Of a stretch of DNA of 64,000 nt, positions 17,175 through 22,060 are shown piece after piece. The stretch comes from Bdellovibrionota bacterium (GTDB lineage: Bacteria > Bdellovibrionota_C > UBA2361 > JBGSMV01), in contig JBIKWF010000002.1 in NCBI GenBank assembly GCA_044356455.1, forward strand, positions 67,202 to 131,201. The letters run 5' to 3'. Under the pieces are notes generated by a model. That model worked only from the letters and a program-made list of their open reading frames with translations. It was not told the origin of the DNA and did no database searches. The translations under genes were made by a program, and so were the position numbers. Positions within the stretch are counted from its first letter, which is position 1. The number at the start of each line of letters is the position of its first letter.

Positions 17175-17942
17175 TCACCCACCGGCAACGGCGGCAAGAA
17201 TAAACCCGACGTCTGCACGCCGCTGTCCGTCAAAGGCGCCCTCTATAAAATTCTCAAATACCGGCCATCGCCGGTGATACACATATGCTGCCCGGGGAAC
17301 TCTCAGAAGCTGCGGACAGGCCTCGAGAAACGCTAACTCTTCGAGCAAGTACTGAGCCCCTCTTTCAATTCCAGCCTCCGCAAGAGTGTTCCTCGGTAAA
17401 CGCCCCTCAAGAACGCCTCGAGTCGCCTCCTGAACAGACCTTTTAAACTCAGGACTTCGCTCGTAGAGCTCTGCAATTTTTTGCTGCGCCTCAGCATAAT
17501 CAGTCGCACTTATCACGTGAGTGTCCCATTCAACAAACTCAAGCTTCACCCCATGAGCCTGCGCTACACGCTCGCAGCGGTGACGCAAATTGTTGCCTTT
17601 AAGTCGCGCTTTTGCGGCGGCTTGTGCCTCGGAATAGCCAAGCGCCGCAAAAGTATGGCGAGCAGAGGCCGCAGGGATAAAAACGACTACCCGCGAAAAA
17701 TGCTCAGCACAGCCCTTGAGGAGCAGCGCAATCGTATCTTCTCTAAAATAGGTATTCCCTGGACTCATCCCAACAATACAAGTCCCTCGCTCAGAGATGA
17801 CTTGCCGCCCCGTGGCAAAGCAATGTTCGTGCCCCTCTGCCGAGAAAAAAACTCCACGAGGGGGCGTCAGAGGAAATTGAAGACCTTGCACCGCGCCTGA
17901 AAGCGACACTGCGGGATTAGGACTTTCAGGGACGGGTTCCAT
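17175..17942 (-). CDS. cyclodipeptide synthase (tRNA-dependent, AlbC-like)
   Basis: 255 aa. IVGMSPGNTYF matches the AlbC substrate-pocket motif (Gly35/Ser37 context). QYLLEE matches Y178/E182 and VYH matches Y202. Collinear similarity to AlbC as I recall its sequence. Confidence 0.75.
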   Translation of the reverse strand: MEPVPESPNPAVSLSGAVQGLQFPLTPPRGVFFSAEGHEHCFATGRQVISERGTCIVGMSPGNTYFREDTIALLLKGCAEHFSRVVVFIPAASARHTFAALGYSEAQAAAKARLKGNNLRHRCERVAQAHGVKLEFVEWDTHVISATDYAEAQQKIAELYERSPEFKRSVQEATRGVLEGRLPRNTLAEAGIERGAQYLLEELAFLEACPQLLRVPRAAYVYHRRWPVFENFIEGAFDGQRRADVGFILAAVAGG

Positions 17943-17979
17943 ACTGCCTCCACGGAAGGGATTTCATCTCCTCCGTAGT

Positions 17980-18016
17980 TGGCGATATGCTATAATCCTA
18001 AGCAAAATATACGCGT
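17980..18016 (+). promoter_or_regulatory. candidate extended -10 promoter (TGcTATAAT) plus 10-bp palindrome ATACGCGTAT upstream of the Lrp gene
   Basis: TGCTATAAT at about 17982-17990 and a perfect palindrome ATACGCGTAT at about 18005-18014, within the divergent CDPS/Lrp intergenic region. Confidence 0.35.
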
Positions 18017-18030
18017 ATTGATTATACTTT

Positions 18031-19074
18031 ATGACTTTTAATAATCACTTAGCGACTGTCGAGAAGAAGGATAAGCAGATACTCGAGATTCTTGCGCAGA
18101 ACTGCCGCATCCCGCACACCACGCTTGGCGCAGCCCTTGGCGTCTCAAAAGACACTATCGAATACCGCATCCAGCGGCTCGAGCGCGAAGAACTCCTCAA
18201 GCAATTCGTCCTCTTCATTGACGCCCGAAAGCTTGGGCTTACTCGCTACCATCTGCTTCTTTCTTTTGAAGCACCGGTAGGAGATCTCACCGTCGTTTGC
18301 AATCAATTCGCCGCCCATCCCTTTGTGATGTGGGTGAACAGTTTTATTGGACGGTATGATGTTCAAATAATTGTTGATGCGCGAAACGGCTTTCATCTCA
18401 ACGAAATCAAGAGTGAACTTTTTGCAAAAACTGCTCTTAAGATTCGAGACTACCGCATCTTAACCCACCTGTCGGACCTTGAGTTCACTCAACTTAATCC
18501 TATCCTTGATTTAAAGACTGCCTTTGAAAGAAAGGCCGATCACTCTTTCAGTGATATGCTCACGAACAAGCGCTTTCCTGTCTCTGAAACTTTTGAGCTC
18601 TGCCCACTCGCGAAGGGTGATTCGCAGATTCTCAAAGCCCTCGCTGATAATCCGCGCATGAGCATTTCCGATATTTCAGACGCTGCGGGACTCGACAGAG
18701 TTACGACGCGGCGCCACATTCTAAGCCTTATCAAGAAGGGAATAATCTTGAACTTTGGGGGCATACCCAATCTTTCTCGACTAGGATTTGTAACTTATTA
18801 CCTCCTGGTAAGAGTGTCTCAGGACACGCCTCTTAGGATACTCAAACGCCCCTTTGAGAAACTCCGGAACATCTTCTATGCAGGCCGCATGCTCGGGGAC
18901 TACGACATGATTCTGTACCTTAATGCGAGAACTCCCGAGGAACTCTACCAGAGCATCTCTCTCTACAAGAATGAGCTGAAGTCTCACATCGTTCACTATG
19001 ATCTTCTTATTCAGGACAAAGTGCACCACTGGAGGCAATTCACTCCGGGCATTTTCCAGAGTTTCGCGAGCTAA
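18031..19074 (+). CDS. tandem-duplicated Lrp/AsnC-family transcriptional regulator
   Basis: Two successive AsnC-type HTH segments (KQILEILAQNCRIPHTTLGAALGVS... and SQILKALADNPRMSISDISDAAGL...), each followed by a RAM-like domain. Confidence 0.75.
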   Translation: MTFNNHLATVEKKDKQILEILAQNCRIPHTTLGAALGVSKDTIEYRIQRLEREELLKQFVLFIDARKLGLTRYHLLLSFEAPVGDLTVVCNQFAAHPFVMWVNSFIGRYDVQIIVDARNGFHLNEIKSELFAKTALKIRDYRILTHLSDLEFTQLNPILDLKTAFERKADHSFSDMLTNKRFPVSETFELCPLAKGDSQILKALADNPRMSISDISDAAGLDRVTTRRHILSLIKKGIILNFGGIPNLSRLGFVTYYLLVRVSQDTPLRILKRPFEKLRNIFYAGRMLGDYDMILYLNARTPEELYQSISLYKNELKSHIVHYDLLIQDKVHHWRQFTPGIFQSFAS

Positions 19075-19207
19075 GAAAACTCTGAAAAAGTCTGCTCTGT
19101 GAACTCGGTGCCCTCTGTGGTTGATCTAACTTATTAAAAAACCACAGAGGACACAGAGATCACAGAGAGAAAGAATAAGATGACGAGGTCTTTGAGAGGT
19201 GCCTAAG
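19071..19207. repeat. MITE-like element, copy 5
   Basis: TIRs CTAAGAAAACTCTGAAAAA and TCTTTGAGAGGTGCCTAAG, with interior palindrome ccctctgtggtt.../...aaccacagaggaca. The left TIR supplies the TAA stop of the Lrp gene. Confidence 0.7.
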
Positions 19208-19940: not shown

Positions 19941-20753
19941 GTGACTCCCATCCATCAAACATTCTTGAATAACAAATCCGCGCTTGAACATGAGCTCGGG
20001 GAGGAAGTCTCTGTGAGTGGCCTCACAGGTCCCTTAAGGATATTTCAAAGATTAAAGGGACACAGGCACTCGATAGACGACACGACGACAGCCTGGTACG
20101 CGCTGAATAAAAGCCCAATCGCCCAGCGCGTACTGGACTTAGGCACAGGCATAGGCACCGTTGGACTCGTAGTCCTTTGGGGCTTAGGCGAAAGATCCGC
20201 TCTTACGTGCGTCGAGGCGCAAGAACTAAGCTTCAAGCTTCTTACTGCAAACATTGCTTGCAATGGTCTAAACTCACGAGTGCGGGCAATTCATGGAGAC
20301 CTACGAGATTTGTCCCTAGGCGAAAAATTTCCTCTCATCACGGGCAGCCCCCCTTACTTTCCGAAAGACGCAGGAGTACTTCCAGAAGACAGCCAAAAGG
20401 CCCACGCGCGCTTTGAGCTCCGCGGGGATGTCGGAGACTATGCGAGAGCTGCGAAGCGCCACCTTGAAGACGACGGAGTCTTTGTTTATTGCTTTCCTTG
20501 GCAGCAAAAGCAGCGCGGCATTACCTTAGTTGAGGAAGCAGGTCTCACCATTTGCACCATTCAAGATGTGATTCCCCGTCCTCATAAGCCGCCCCTCTTC
20601 TCTCTCTATTCGGCAAAGCTTCGCTCCGATAAGCCTCTGCAAGAAGAACCCCCTTTTCTTGTAGCAGACGCGGCAGGCCGCTACTCGGACCAAATGATTG
20701 CGATGCAGCGCAGCCGCGGCTTTGGGCCGGACGGAACGAATTTAATTGAGTAA
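19941..20753 (+). CDS. SAM-dependent methyltransferase, TrmN6/YfiC-like (N6-adenine type)
   Basis: SAM motif LDLGTGIGTVGL and an (N/D/S)PPY-type catalytic motif ITGSPPYFP. Confidence 0.65.
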   Translation: MTPIHQTFLNNKSALEHELGEEVSVSGLTGPLRIFQRLKGHRHSIDDTTTAWYALNKSPIAQRVLDLGTGIGTVGLVVLWGLGERSALTCVEAQELSFKLLTANIACNGLNSRVRAIHGDLRDLSLGEKFPLITGSPPYFPKDAGVLPEDSQKAHARFELRGDVGDYARAAKRHLEDDGVFVYCFPWQQKQRGITLVEEAGLTICTIQDVIPRPHKPPLFSLYSAKLRSDKPLQEEPPFLVADAAGRYSDQMIAMQRSRGFGPDGTNLIE

Positions 20754-20887: not shown

Positions 20888-22021
20888 CTAGACAATCTGC
20901 TTTTTCCAGAGTTGCTCCAGAAACTCGGCCACGGGAACAATCTCAATGCCATTGTCGAGCGTGCGTTGGTTGGGCTCGTTGCAGACAAGTATGCGGCGAA
21001 GGTGAGGAATCTCTTCAGAGAGCGCAACGAGTCCCCGCATGTCGTCAGAGATGGCTCGGCGTGTGGTCTTTATTTCCACAGCAACCCTTTCGCCAATCAG
21101 CAAGTCAACTTCAATTCCCGAGGATGTACGCCAGAATGCAATCGGAAGATCGAGTTGATTGTAGGAAAGGTAAGTTCGCACCTCATTGAGCACGAGATGC
21201 TCGAGAGGAATTCCGTTCACTTGAGATTGCGATTCAAACTGATTTAGTATTCCGTTAACCACTCCCATATCGAAGATATAGAACTTGCTTGTCGCGCTCG
21301 CCTTTCTCGTTCTACTCCTCCTCCAGGCCGGAAGTTCAAACCCGAGTAAGGTATCAGTGAGGACCTCGAAATAGGACCTTACGGTATTAACCTTAACCTC
21401 GCTCAGCCTTGAAATTTTCGCAAAATTTACTTGGGTGCCGTGGGCAAGAGCTGCGATTGGCAGGAAGCGAGCGAACGCGCCGATCCCCCGAACGAGCCCC
21501 TCTGCCCGCACTTCTTCATCGAGATAGAGACTGACGTAGTTGCGAAGCTCCTCGCGATATCGTGGGCTGTCGATAATGCCAGGGAGAGATCCCTTTACGA
21601 GGCGCTCGTCAATTCGCGCCGTGCCCAGTTCCGCAGAGACAAGAGGGAAGAGTTCTCTGCGAAAAATTCGACCAGGTAACAGGTTCACTCCACGTCGCTT
21701 AAGCGCGCGAGCACTGCTTCCCGTAAGCACTACCCGTAGTTTAGGATTCCTATCAAGGAGCACCTGACACTCATTGAAGACATCAGGGACCCGCTGCGCC
21801 TCATCAATAATCAGGATAGAAGTGTTACTTCCCAGCCGCTCTCGCACTAGCTCTGGGCGGGCGCTTAGTTCGCGGAACGTATCCGACTCAGCCAGATTGT
21901 AATACTCGGCGTCAGGAAACGTGATTCTCAGAAGGGTGCTCTTGCCAGTTTGGCGGGGCCCGATTAGTAGCAGAGATTTTATGGCAGTGGCCTGCGCGAT
22001 ATCGATTGCCCGGGTATACAT
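20888..22021 (-). CDS. AAA+ ATPase (AAA_14 / DUF4143 family)
   Basis: Walker A GPRQTGKST and Walker B ILIIDEAQ, with the C-terminal DUF4143-like region. The likely start is at MYTRAID. Confidence 0.7.
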   Translation of the reverse strand: MYTRAIDIAQATAIKSLLLIGPRQTGKSTLLRITFPDAEYYNLAESDTFRELSARPELVRERLGSNTSILIIDEAQRVPDVFNECQVLLDRNPKLRVVLTGSSARALKRRGVNLLPGRIFRRELFPLVSAELGTARIDERLVKGSLPGIIDSPRYREELRNYVSLYLDEEVRAEGLVRGIGAFARFLPIAALAHGTQVNFAKISRLSEVKVNTVRSYFEVLTDTLLGFELPAWRRSRTRKASATSKFYIFDMGVVNGILNQFESQSQVNGIPLEHLVLNEVRTYLSYNQLDLPIAFWRTSSGIEVDLLIGERVAVEIKTTRRAISDDMRGLVALSEEIPHLRRILVCNEPNQRTLDNGIEIVPVAEFLEQLWKKQIV

Positions 22022-22060
22022 ATCGTCATTATAGATGTGGATTTTCGCGAAAATCCACAT

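Follow-up and report, generated by a model that had tools for sequence, protein, structure and literature searches.

A conserved divergent pair of an NYH-type cyclodipeptide synthase and a tandem Lrp/AsnC protein in a Bdellovibrionota-like bacterium, shared mainly with DPANN archaea

Two divergent genes separated by 88 bp lie between positions 17175 and 19074 of the window, the 64,000-nucleotide stretch of contig JBIKWF010000002.1 that was analysed. One encodes a cyclodipeptide synthase (CDPS) and the other a protein with two Lrp/AsnC units in a single chain. The features of the locus, with their basis in brackets, were as follows.

17175..17942, minus strand: cyclodipeptide synthase gene, NYH subfamily, 255 aa (PF16715, TIGR04539, PDB matches, model)
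17274..17351, minus strand: segment with Tyr198, Glu202, Tyr222 and His223, equivalent to AlbC Y178, E182, Y202 and H203 (alignment)
17754-17756, minus strand: codon of Asn63, equivalent to AlbC N40 (AlbC/YvmC alignment)
17763-17765, minus strand: codon of the catalytic Ser60, equivalent to AlbC Ser37, in GMSPGN (AlbC/YvmC alignment, sequence)
17943..18030, no strand: shared control region of 88 bp between the divergent genes (sequence)
17950..17978, minus strand: predicted stem-loop in the CDPS leader, its 9-bp stem abutting the GGAGG Shine-Dalgarno sequence at 17947-17951 (RNA fold)
17988..17996, plus strand: extended -10-like element TGCTATAAT, directed toward the Lrp gene (sequence; shared with loci L049 and L006)
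17999..18018, no strand: candidate operator block, TAAGCAAAAT followed by ATACGCGTAT (position weight matrix of the archaeal central block)
18031..19074, plus strand: FFRP-like protein of 347 aa, two Lrp/AsnC units in tandem in one chain (two HTH_AsnC matches, model)
18064..18489, plus strand: HTH 1 (aa 12-52) and RAM domain 1 (aa 56-153) with the loop GRYDVQIIVDA (model, columns of alignment A1)
18490..18618, plus strand: inter-repeat linker, aa 154-196, LNPxLDL...DHSFS...FPV (conserved A1 columns, model)
18619..19032, plus strand: HTH 2 (aa 197-235) and RAM domain 2 (aa 239-334) with the loop GDYDMILYLNA (HMM, A1, model)

Sequence profiles and a predicted structure confirmed the ORF at 17175-17942 on the minus strand as an NYH-type cyclodipeptide synthase, as the preliminary description of this DNA had proposed. 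The search with PF16715, suggested there as a check, scored far above the curated cut-off (E 3.3e-34; 119 bits against 27; model positions 10-213 of 220), and TIGR04539 matched with 143.1 bits (cut-off 45). The closest of the solved structures was YvmC (E 2.4e-17, about 23% identity), with AlbC at E 2.8e-10. Structural comparison, the second check suggested, placed the predicted model in the same Rossmann-like fold related to class-I aminoacyl-tRNA synthetases, with target-normalised TM values of 0.75 for YvmC, 0.72 for BtCDPS and 0.70 for AlbC; the model itself was only moderately confident overall (pLDDT 73.6), with about 88 for residues 50-230. Motif by motif, the alignment given in the preliminary description was also correct. 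IVGMSPGNTYF aligned with ALIGISAGNSYF of AlbC, so that G35, S37 and N40 correspond to G58, S60 and N63, QYLLEE supplied Y198 and E202 for Y178 and E182, and VYH supplied Y222 and H223 for Y202 and H203. The full Ser/Tyr/Glu/Tyr constellation is therefore present, and its four residues (Ser60, Tyr198, Glu202, Tyr222) occupied invariant columns in alignment A2, as did His223. The NYH signature consists here of N63, Y222 and H223. Equivalents of S37, N40, Y178, E182, Y202 and H203 were intact in the window CDPS and in nearly all CDPSs paired with a tandem Lrp at other loci. Residues 1-45 form an N-terminal extension that the archaeal relatives lack.

The database label of the window CDPS, cyclo(Tyr-Tyr) synthase (JGI), was without support and is corrected here: NF052540 scored 51 bits (cut-off 300), and the pocket motifs of cyclo(Tyr-Tyr) synthases (P1 VG[IV]TMLFN, P2 L..[..]QLP) were absent. 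The pocket motifs found instead, IGFPDFLY for P1 and AGVGRWP for P2, matched none of the published specificity groups. No tailoring enzyme was adjacent to the CDPS, as noted before, and none recurred across the 18 loci compared, where only the two cassette genes did so. A methyltransferase at 19941-20753 was considered and rejected, being TrmN/PrmC-like with scores far below the cut-offs, two genes away, and missing from the other loci compared. The CDPS matched none of the PADLOC defence models; membership of the pair in a defence system was likewise rejected, as the tandem Lrp met the Csa3/CasR models through its winged HTH alone.

The divergent partner was found to be internally duplicated, as previously described, with two HTH_AsnC domains and two RAM folds. 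PF13404 (HTH_AsnC) matched at E 2.3e-19 over two stretches (aa 13-51 and about 198-239), PF01037 (RAM) was borderline at 24.9 bits (cut-off 25), and the predicted model (pLDDT 94.5, pTM 0.91) contained two clear beta-alpha-beta-beta-alpha-beta RAM units. Aligned with one another, the two halves shared 25% identity (E 4e-10). They are joined by a 43-aa linker that was invariant or nearly so in A1 and was modelled with pLDDT above 90 without regular secondary structure. Each half matched PH0061, PH1519 and LrpA, with TM values of about 0.8 to PH0061, PH1519 (DNA complex included) and PH0140. When the family profile built from A1 was searched against the PDB, solely Lrp/AsnC transcription factors were recovered (PH1519 7.6e-14, LrpA 4.9e-12); none of the equivalog models was attained, LysM for example scoring 74.5 bits where 180 are required. 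Mean column identity of the family in A1 was 64%, and both recognition helices, with their basic and polar residues, and both G-x-[YF]-D loops were conserved. The protein is thus not the usual Lrp subunit of about 150 aa but a chain of 347 aa made of two non-identical units. The sole structural analogue of the full-length chain was NirDL, which is an enzyme, and a regulatory role should therefore not be presumed.

We further examined the control region at 17943-18030. The extended -10 element reported in the preliminary description was present as TGCTATAAT at 17988-17996, and it recurred in the closest sister locus, L049 (Lrp identity 82%), as well as in L006. A two-hexamer sigma70 scan found no canonical promoter for either gene and left TGCTATAAT uncalled; its single match overlapped the Lrp start codon, scored no better than shuffled sequences and was discarded. 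The reported palindrome, ATACGCGTAT, does exist at 18009-18018, but it could not be upheld as an operator. A perfect 10-bp palindrome has a probability of about 0.07 of occurring by chance within 88 bp, the window holds 76 of them against about 62 expected, and L049 retains the CGCG core only. Its symmetry was therefore rejected as an operator signal, although the sequence may still be part of a site. Since the two HTHs of the tandem Lrp differ, an asymmetric site is to be expected. TATGCTATAATCCTAA was identical in the window and L049. The CDPS leader was predicted to fold into the listed stem-loop (-19.1 kcal/mol, z -3.15), and a stem lay at the equivalent position in L049 with four of its nine pairs changed on both sides, a comparison of two sequences only.

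Loci of archaeal cassettes have in common a rigid bidirectional control region with TATA boxes: about 27 of 33 loci had TTTATATA at -31 and ATATAATAA at -74 relative to the start codon (ATG) of the Lrp gene, the two flanking a conserved block. The exact pattern TAAGMAWWAT was rejected as a shared box, being found in only 7 of the 33 loci, and a position weight matrix of the central block was used in its place. Its best match in the window region fell on the minus strand at 17999-18018 with p 0.007, a value drawn from a few related loci and statistically weak; matches in the same CGCG region had p 0.018 in L049 and p 0.002 in L006. To judge from these sequences, sigma70-type signals replace the archaeal TATA promoters in the window.

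The pairing proved to be a conserved two-gene cassette, mainly of the ultra-small DPANN archaea, which the preliminary description had missed. Among distinct loci with enough upstream sequence beside the tandem Lrp to be informative, the CDPS was directly upstream and divergent in 26 of 31. The intergenic distance, 88 bp in the window, ranged from 88 to 115 bp over the 14 paired loci measured. An all-against-all comparison of the neighbours at 18 loci found that the CDPS and tandem Lrp alone recurred, with no third conserved gene. Members numbered 117 Lrp clusters and 48 CDPS representatives at E <= 1e-30. Named carriers were almost all DPANN archaea, with a few bacterial copies besides that of the window, and among the papers searched none dealt with the pairing of a CDPS with a tandem Lrp. 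The two proteins diverged together, their pairwise identities being correlated (r = 0.80), with mean identities of 64% for the tandem Lrp and 41% for the CDPS and the Lrp higher in all 276 locus pairs. That the tandem Lrp, linker included, is more strongly conserved than the CDPS is unusual for a local regulator.

Exceptions to the pairing were seen on both sides. The tandem Lrp occurred without a CDPS at L013, L017, L021, L022 and L046, and the divergent layout with its control region persisted with another gene in the place of the CDPS at L013, L021, L022 and L051; in a gammaproteobacterial copy the gene opposite encodes an MFS transporter. Since loci with a replaced CDPS retain this layout, the Lrp and its promoter region form the constant part of the cassette. 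Conversely, the CDPS relatives L003 and L004 had no Lrp. Active-site changes in a partner CDPS were found at L019 (S37C/H203Y), and the CDPS of L031 was truncated.

The host of the window copy is a bacterium, Bdellovibrionota/Oligoflexia-like, as indicated by GyrA with its named relatives and a sigma54 activator. In GC3 neither cassette gene departed from the host (z -1.1 and +0.4), and recent acquisition by the host was rejected on these grounds. Overall GC of the Lrp gene was low (z -2.2), probably a matter of amino-acid composition given that GC3. The window CDPS has a strong Shine-Dalgarno sequence, and the pair is kept in the sister lineage. In a bootstrapped neighbour-joining tree the bacterial-type loci branched off deeply at several points, outside the crown of archaeal loci; bootstrap support for grouping them was 3-52% and gave no direction of transfer between the domains. 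The neighbours of L006, L031, L038 and L045 gave no decisive domain-of-life markers in Pfam searches.

Taken together, we consider it probable that the locus encodes a minimal, active CDPS controlled by a tandem Lrp that is dedicated to it and senses an effector, and that the two are inherited as a unit. The sequences establish what both proteins are, the catalytic residues, the pairing with its geometry and the conserved non-coding blocks; that the Lrp binds DNA, whether it activates or represses, what it senses and what the CDPS makes are inferred. The CDPS would take two aminoacyl-tRNAs, Ser60 being loaded with the first aminoacyl group and the second being added to give a dipeptidyl-enzyme, which Tyr198, Glu202 and Tyr222 would cyclise to release a 2,5-diketopiperazine with no dedicated tailoring enzyme downstream. 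The tandem Lrp would act as a 'pseudo-dimer' of two FFRP units in one chain, most likely binding an asymmetric site in the 88-bp control region and controlling both the CDPS promoter and its own through a small effector on the RAM domains. A free amino acid is the most likely effector and the cyclodipeptide itself the main alternative; the former is favoured by family precedent and by the retention of both canonical G-x-[YF]-D loops. By analogy with the family, coupling of the CDPS to amino-acid status, as first suggested, is plausible. The cassette is widespread in DPANN archaea and sporadic in bacteria.

The cyclodipeptide alternative amounts to a synthase-receptor loop, in which the tandem Lrp would sense the product of the CDPS in a cavity between the RAM domains and feed back on both promoters, much like a LuxI/LuxR pair, with CDPS-less copies as 'solo' receptors listening to neighbours. 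We regard this as unlikely, but several observations speak for it. CDPS and Lrp are inherited together and diverge in step (r = 0.80), loci without a CDPS retain the Lrp along with its promoter architecture, and the carriers, DPANN archaea and a Bdellovibrionota-like bacterium, are host-dependent. The highly conserved partner also has invariant polar residues with i+2 spacing on its RAM strands (R72/H74, W101/N103, D110/Q112/D116, R261, Q328), which suggests a polar pocket on one face of the sheet, and the inter-RAM cavity of NirDL can hold a ligand (PMC4835899). Against a cyclodipeptide ligand, pocket P2 of the CDPS varies among cassettes and the Lrp hardly does so, and both halves keep the canonical loops of amino-acid-binding Lrp proteins. 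In the Lrp family, free amino acids are bound at a site that includes the G-x-[YF]-D loops. The broader version, that such a circuit of a tRNA-dependent peptide synthase and a single-chain FFRP is a conserved signalling device of genome-reduced, host-dependent DPANN archaea which crossed into cell-associated bacteria, the Bdellovibrionota-like host of the window among them, and on which CDPS-less copies eavesdrop, is doubtful.

The tandem protein could alternatively serve the CDPS as an obligate partner or be an enzyme itself, derived from Lrp/AsnC as AhbAB and NirDL were and modifying, for example, the diketopiperazine within the inter-RAM barrel. Its conservation beyond that of the CDPS, linker included, would fit, as would the lack of any other tailoring gene at the compared loci and the invariant His74 on a RAM beta-strand, where siroheme decarboxylase also carries its substrate-binding His (PMC4835899). 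Nevertheless, identity to NirDL was only 11-12%, AhbA and AhbB scored 23.2 and 22.8 bits against cut-offs of 140 and 125, and the family profile, searched against the PDB at E <= 1e-3, found only transcription factors and neither AhbAB nor NirDL. Moreover, the gene was always divergent from the CDPS and never in a co-transcribed layout, both HTHs conserve basic and polar recognition-helix residues, and CDPS-less copies face unrelated genes with an unchanged promoter architecture, all of which makes an enzymatic role improbable. Still less credible is an incidental adjacency, with the Lrp as a general regulator, or an inactive CDPS relic. The five loci with an Lrp and no CDPS, the Lrp-less relatives L003 and L004, and the altered or truncated enzymes of L019 and L031 point that way, but 26 of 31 loci keep the pair in fixed orientation and spacing within unrelated neighbourhoods in two domains of life. 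The window CDPS, for its part, has all its catalytic residues, GC3 at host level, a strong Shine-Dalgarno sequence and a pair retained in the sister lineage.

The usual view of CDPSs is that they catalyse the first step of tailored, antibiotic-type pathways in Actinobacteria, Firmicutes and Proteobacteria. The CDPS described here is minimal and travels with one very conserved double Lrp through dozens of DPANN lineages and several bacteria. DPANN genomes are small and encode little biosynthesis, and retention of the pair by such reduced organisms suggests an important role for an unmodified cyclodipeptide, possibly in sensing nutrients or partners. Comprising two genes plus about 100 bp of control sequence, the cassette offers a compact system for the roles of cyclodipeptides in uncultivated symbionts, and the tandem Lrp is a naturally occurring single-chain Lrp/FFRP in which the recognition of asymmetric operators could be studied. 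It also presents a clean case of one cassette carrying archaeal TATA/BRE-type signals or a sigma70-type element according to domain.

Compared with known systems, the window CDPS shares family, catalytic residues, the N..YH signature and a Rossmann-like fold with AlbC of Streptomyces noursei and YvmC of Bacillus, which makes cyclo-Leu-Leu. It differs from them in having neither a P450 (CypX) nor an oxidase (AlbAB) as partner, in its clade, which is mainly of DPANN archaea, and in its 45-residue N-terminal extension. The 2018 overview of the CDPS family lists NYH enzymes mostly from Actinobacteria, Firmicutes and Proteobacteria, with archaea unmentioned. The tandem Lrp resembles FL11/PH1519, LrpA, PH0061, LysM and bacterial Lrp/AsnC proteins in combining HTH_AsnC and RAM domains with a G-x-[YF]-D loop, its halves being 19-25% identical to these proteins at TM of about 0.8. 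Archaeal FFRPs and bacterial Lrp/AsnC genes typically lie divergent beside the gene that they regulate, as in the cassette. Known members assemble subunits of about 150 aa into homodimers and octamers, whereas the cassette protein fuses two units with non-identical HTHs; the terms 'tandem', 'fused' and 'duplicat' are all absent from the text of a review on archaeal Lrp proteins (PMC2995911). NirDL likewise consists of two Lrp-like units forming one alpha+beta barrel, an arrangement also found in the tandem Lrp, but NirDL is an enzyme and the cassette protein retains regulator-like features. No heme or heme d1 genes lay next to the window copy, and no neighbour other than the CDPS recurred across loci. 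With LuxI/LuxR the cassette would share, as a hypothesis only, a small-molecule synthase beside a ligand-sensing regulator and solo receptors; the LuxI and LuxR families are unrelated to CDPS and Lrp, and signalling by the product is hypothetical in the cassette. The pulcherriminic acid locus of Bacillus (yvmC-cypX; PMC7731078) likewise combines a CDPS with a local, dedicated transcription factor. There the regulators are of the MarR type (YvmB/PchR), a P450 and a transporter are included, and the locus is not inter-domain, whereas the cassette described here carries a tandem Lrp and spans archaea and bacteria.

In the window, the cyclodipeptide synthase (CDPS) and the tandem Lrp, a double-unit Lrp/AsnC protein, were encoded divergently with 88 bp between them. 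The features of the pair and its control region were as follows.

17175-17942, minus strand: CDPS open reading frame, 255 aa (PF16715, TIGR04539)
17988-17996: extended -10-like sequence TGCTATAAT
18009-18018: palindrome ATACGCGTAT
18031-19074, plus strand: tandem Lrp open reading frame, 347 aa, with two AsnC-type HTH domains

The 255-aa protein matched PF16715 with E 3.3e-34 and 119 bits (curated cut-off 27) and TIGR04539 with 143 bits (curated cut-off 45), which upheld the preliminary description of this frame as a CDPS. Its best solved relatives were YvmC (E 2.4e-17) and AlbC (2.8e-10). The preliminary AlbC motif alignment was upheld: Ser60 and Asn63 of GMSPGN aligned with AlbC S37 and N40, Tyr198 and Glu202 of QYLLEE with Y178 and E182, and Tyr222 and His223 of VYH with Y202 and H203. 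Because these residues align with AlbC, the protein is assigned by sequence to the NYH subfamily. A shallow alignment gave an AlphaFold model with pLDDT 73.6 overall and ~88 for residues 50-230; target-normalised TM was 0.70-0.75 when the model was superposed on CDPS structures, YvmC and AlbC among them. The N-terminal extension (residues 1-45; 17808-17942, minus strand) was Pro/Gly-rich with pLDDT <50 and was missing from the ~225-aa archaeal CDPS relatives. A comparable coding stretch was seen by eye upstream in the CDPS of L049, the window's closest relative (Lrp 82% identical, CDPS cut at the contig end), and a different, longer extension was seen in another locus, L006. With pocket positions taken from Gondry et al. 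2018, P1 (IGFPDFLY) and P2 (AGVGRWP) matched none of the published motifs, and no product was predictable from the pockets. The JGI label for this gene (17175-17942), 'cyclo(L-tyrosyl-L-tyrosyl) synthase', was unsupported, since NF052540, the cYY equivalog, reached 51 bits where its cut-off is 300, and the pocket motifs differed. Taken alone, the CDPS adds one member to a known family and had already been annotated automatically.

Neither a P450 nor a cyclodipeptide oxidase nor any other tailoring enzyme lay next to the pair, in agreement with the preliminary description. The neighbours were housekeeping or unknown genes, including GmhA, an RluA-type pseudouridine synthase, a DUF3592 protein, a convergent 197-aa protein without a family, a TrmN/PrmC-like methyltransferase two genes off, and an AAA_14/DUF4143 ATPase. 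In PADLOC, the ATPase (20888-22060, minus strand) hit PDC-S01, a candidate defence family (E 8e-55). The Lrp and DUF3592 genes converge on an inverted repeat (19112-19150), whose 11-bp arms, CCTCTGTGGTT...AACCACAGAGG, pair perfectly around a loop of 17 nt; it may be a bidirectional terminator. The window is bacterial, because it encodes a GyrA that includes the C-terminal propeller, a sigma54 activator of the NtrC type, and a HAMP-adenylate cyclase; named relatives of the GyrA (67-71% identity) were labelled Oligoflexia, Bdellovibrionota, Bdellovibrionales, or 'Deltaproteobacteria'.

The earlier reading had both protein identities right but its context was incomplete, as it missed that the two genes form a conserved cassette. 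A word-based search returned only five CDPS relatives, and two distant ones (44% and 29% identity) were divergent from a ~350-aa tandem-AsnC gene in unrelated neighbourhoods. Relatives of the tandem Lrp numbered 117, at 42-82% identity except for a single fragment, identical at 100%, that derives from the window protein, and their organism names, where given, were all Woesearchaeota, Nanoarchaeota, Nanoarchaeia, or Nanoarchaeales. When the family alignment was used to scan reference genomes and metagenomes, 42 loci were recovered, the genome loci being 15 archaeal MAGs (two labelled Methanosarcinales) and one gammaproteobacterial chromosome. A CDPS partner was sought by HMM search over six-frame ORFs of all loci, and the count covered the 31 of 39 distinct loci in which 700 nt or more preceded the Lrp gene. 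We found a CDPS directly upstream on the opposite strand in 26 of these 31, and a truncated CDPS was visible in two shorter loci. The intergenic distance was 88-115 bp (14 paired loci measured), and the CDPS and tandem Lrp were the only recurrent neighbours in an all-against-all ORF comparison. Pairwise identities of the two proteins were correlated (r = 0.80), with Lrp more conserved in 276/276 locus pairs (mean 64% vs 41%).

Several loci departed from this arrangement. Where the CDPS was missing, the divergent gene encoded a small membrane protein in L013 (7521-7922, minus) and L022 (7564-7968, minus), which were mutually homologous, a lipoprotein-like protein in L021 (7447-7881, minus) and L051 (3-248, minus), and an MFS transporter in the gammaproteobacterial L017 (6722-7921, minus). 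Partner CDPSs carried active-site variants (AlbC numbering) in L019 (Ser37 to Cys and His203 to Tyr), L030 (His203 to Tyr), and L031 (Tyr178 to Phe, apparently truncated). In L044, a DDE transposase (DDE_Tnp_1; 845-1936, plus) lay directly 3' of a short, 239-aa tandem-Lrp frame, which may reflect a mobile context. Among the closest CDPS relatives (37-45% identity), P0273, P0280, P0301, and P0289 had a C-terminal SBP_bac_3 solute-binding fusion; this family includes amino-acid-binding proteins, and the fused domain fits the theme of amino-acid sensing set by the Lrp partner. P0367 and P0401 were P450-CDPS fusions. CDPS relatives of 36% identity in L003 and L004/L005 had no Lrp partner: the one in L003 lay among ankyrin-repeat proteins, adjoined by a methyltransferase and an aldo-keto reductase, and that in L004 adjoined a UCH ubiquitin-hydrolase-like protein. 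Such ankyrin-repeat and UCH contexts are typical of eukaryote-dwelling intracellular symbionts.

Counted from the Lrp start, the archaeal control regions carried TTTATATA at position -31 and ATATAATAA at position -74 (~27/33 distinct loci), the latter reading on the opposite strand as a TATA box toward the CDPS. A conserved block (consensus ..TaAGAa.aATG.g.AA.) lay between them, and an aacaTta.tct.A element preceded the Lrp ATG. The same layout was retained in the archaeal loci L013, L021, L022, and L051, which have a small membrane or secreted protein in place of the CDPS. The TATA boxes were absent from the window, L049, L006, L031, L038, and L045. The extended -10 and palindrome of the preliminary description were both present in the window, and L006 also carried TGCTATAAT, but the 10-bp palindrome was absent from L049 and had a chance of ~0.07 in 88 bp, with 76 such palindromes across the window. 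The window and L049 shared TATGCTATAATCCTAA.CAAAAT and a CGCG core. The archaeal central-block PWM matched best over the CGCG region, in minus-strand orientation (p 0.007 in the window, 0.018 in L049, 0.002 in L006), which is suggestive of a candidate counterpart of the archaeal block, the window and L049 not being independent. An asymmetric operator is expected for the tandem Lrp, because its two HTHs differ. The archaeal TATA box toward the CDPS (CAATATAATAAAC, ~-77 to -64 relative to the Lrp ATG) contains TATAAT on the Lrp-gene strand, and the corresponding left part of the window control region (17985-17998) has TGCTATAAT; a bacterial -10 element may thus have arisen by reuse of an archaeal TATA box. 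Directly ahead of the GGAGG Shine-Dalgarno, the CDPS leader contained a stem-loop (17950-17978, minus; dG -19.1 kcal/mol, z -3.15). L049 had a 9-bp stem in the same place (~198-226, minus) with 4/9 pairs changed on both sides, and on this comparison of two sequences the stem could be either a DNA dyad or an RNA element with an effect on translation or stability.

The internal duplication proposed for the Lrp/AsnC protein was confirmed: the protein has a pair of AsnC-type HTH domains (E 2.3e-19), and its two RAM-like halves share 25% identity. The model (pLDDT 94.5, pTM 0.91) had the layout HTH-RAM-linker-HTH-RAM, and the 45 invariant columns of the family alignment were distributed across each HTH and each RAM domain as well as the 43-residue linker. 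Each half superposed on archaeal FFRPs with TM ~0.8, the PH1519-DNA complex included. Searched against PDB, the family profile retrieved only Lrp/AsnC transcription factors (PH1519 7.6e-14, LrpA 4.9e-12) and neither of the siroheme decarboxylases AhbAB and NirDL, and the AhbA and AhbB equivalogs gave 23 bits (cut-offs 140 and 125). The protein is thus regulator-like in sequence. A regulator is favoured because the gene invariably points away from the CDPS and is never co-directional with it, because the promoter architecture accompanies Lrp even without a CDPS, because conservation extends to the two recognition helices and the two canonical G-x-[YF]-D loops, and because no sequence-level link to these decarboxylases was found.

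Taking as established both protein identities, the catalytic residues, the pairing and its geometry, and the conserved non-coding blocks, we infer that the CDPS would convert two aa-tRNAs into an unmodified cyclodipeptide. The tandem Lrp would act as a single-chain pseudo-dimer, binding the shared control region and tuning both promoters in response to an effector, most likely a free amino acid, with the product cyclodipeptide ranked second.

GC3 of both genes was at the host average and the pair was kept by the sister lineage, which indicates that the cassette was no recent arrival in the window. An NJ tree grouped the window with L049 at 100% and placed the bacterial-type loci as several deep branches outside the archaeal crown clade, with weak mutual grouping (3-52%); L036 and L017 were judged bacterial from neighbouring genes or record title.

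Our search of literature available without a subscription returned no paper joining 'cyclodipeptide synthase' with 'AsnC' or 'CDPS' with 'Woesearchaeota', and the two papers naming both 'cyclodipeptide' and 'DPANN' drew no connection between them. Archaea are unmentioned in the 2018 CDPS family overview. The 2010 study of CDPS neighbourhoods lists oxidoreductases, dioxygenases, methyltransferases, and acyl-CoA ligases, with 'Lrp', 'HTH', and 'transcription' absent, and the words 'tandem', 'fused', and 'duplicat' are absent from a review of archaeal Lrp regulators (PMC2995911). Against this literature, the new elements are the conserved pairing of CDPS and tandem Lrp in one cassette, a distribution centred on DPANN archaea, and the bacterial-type control region in the window.
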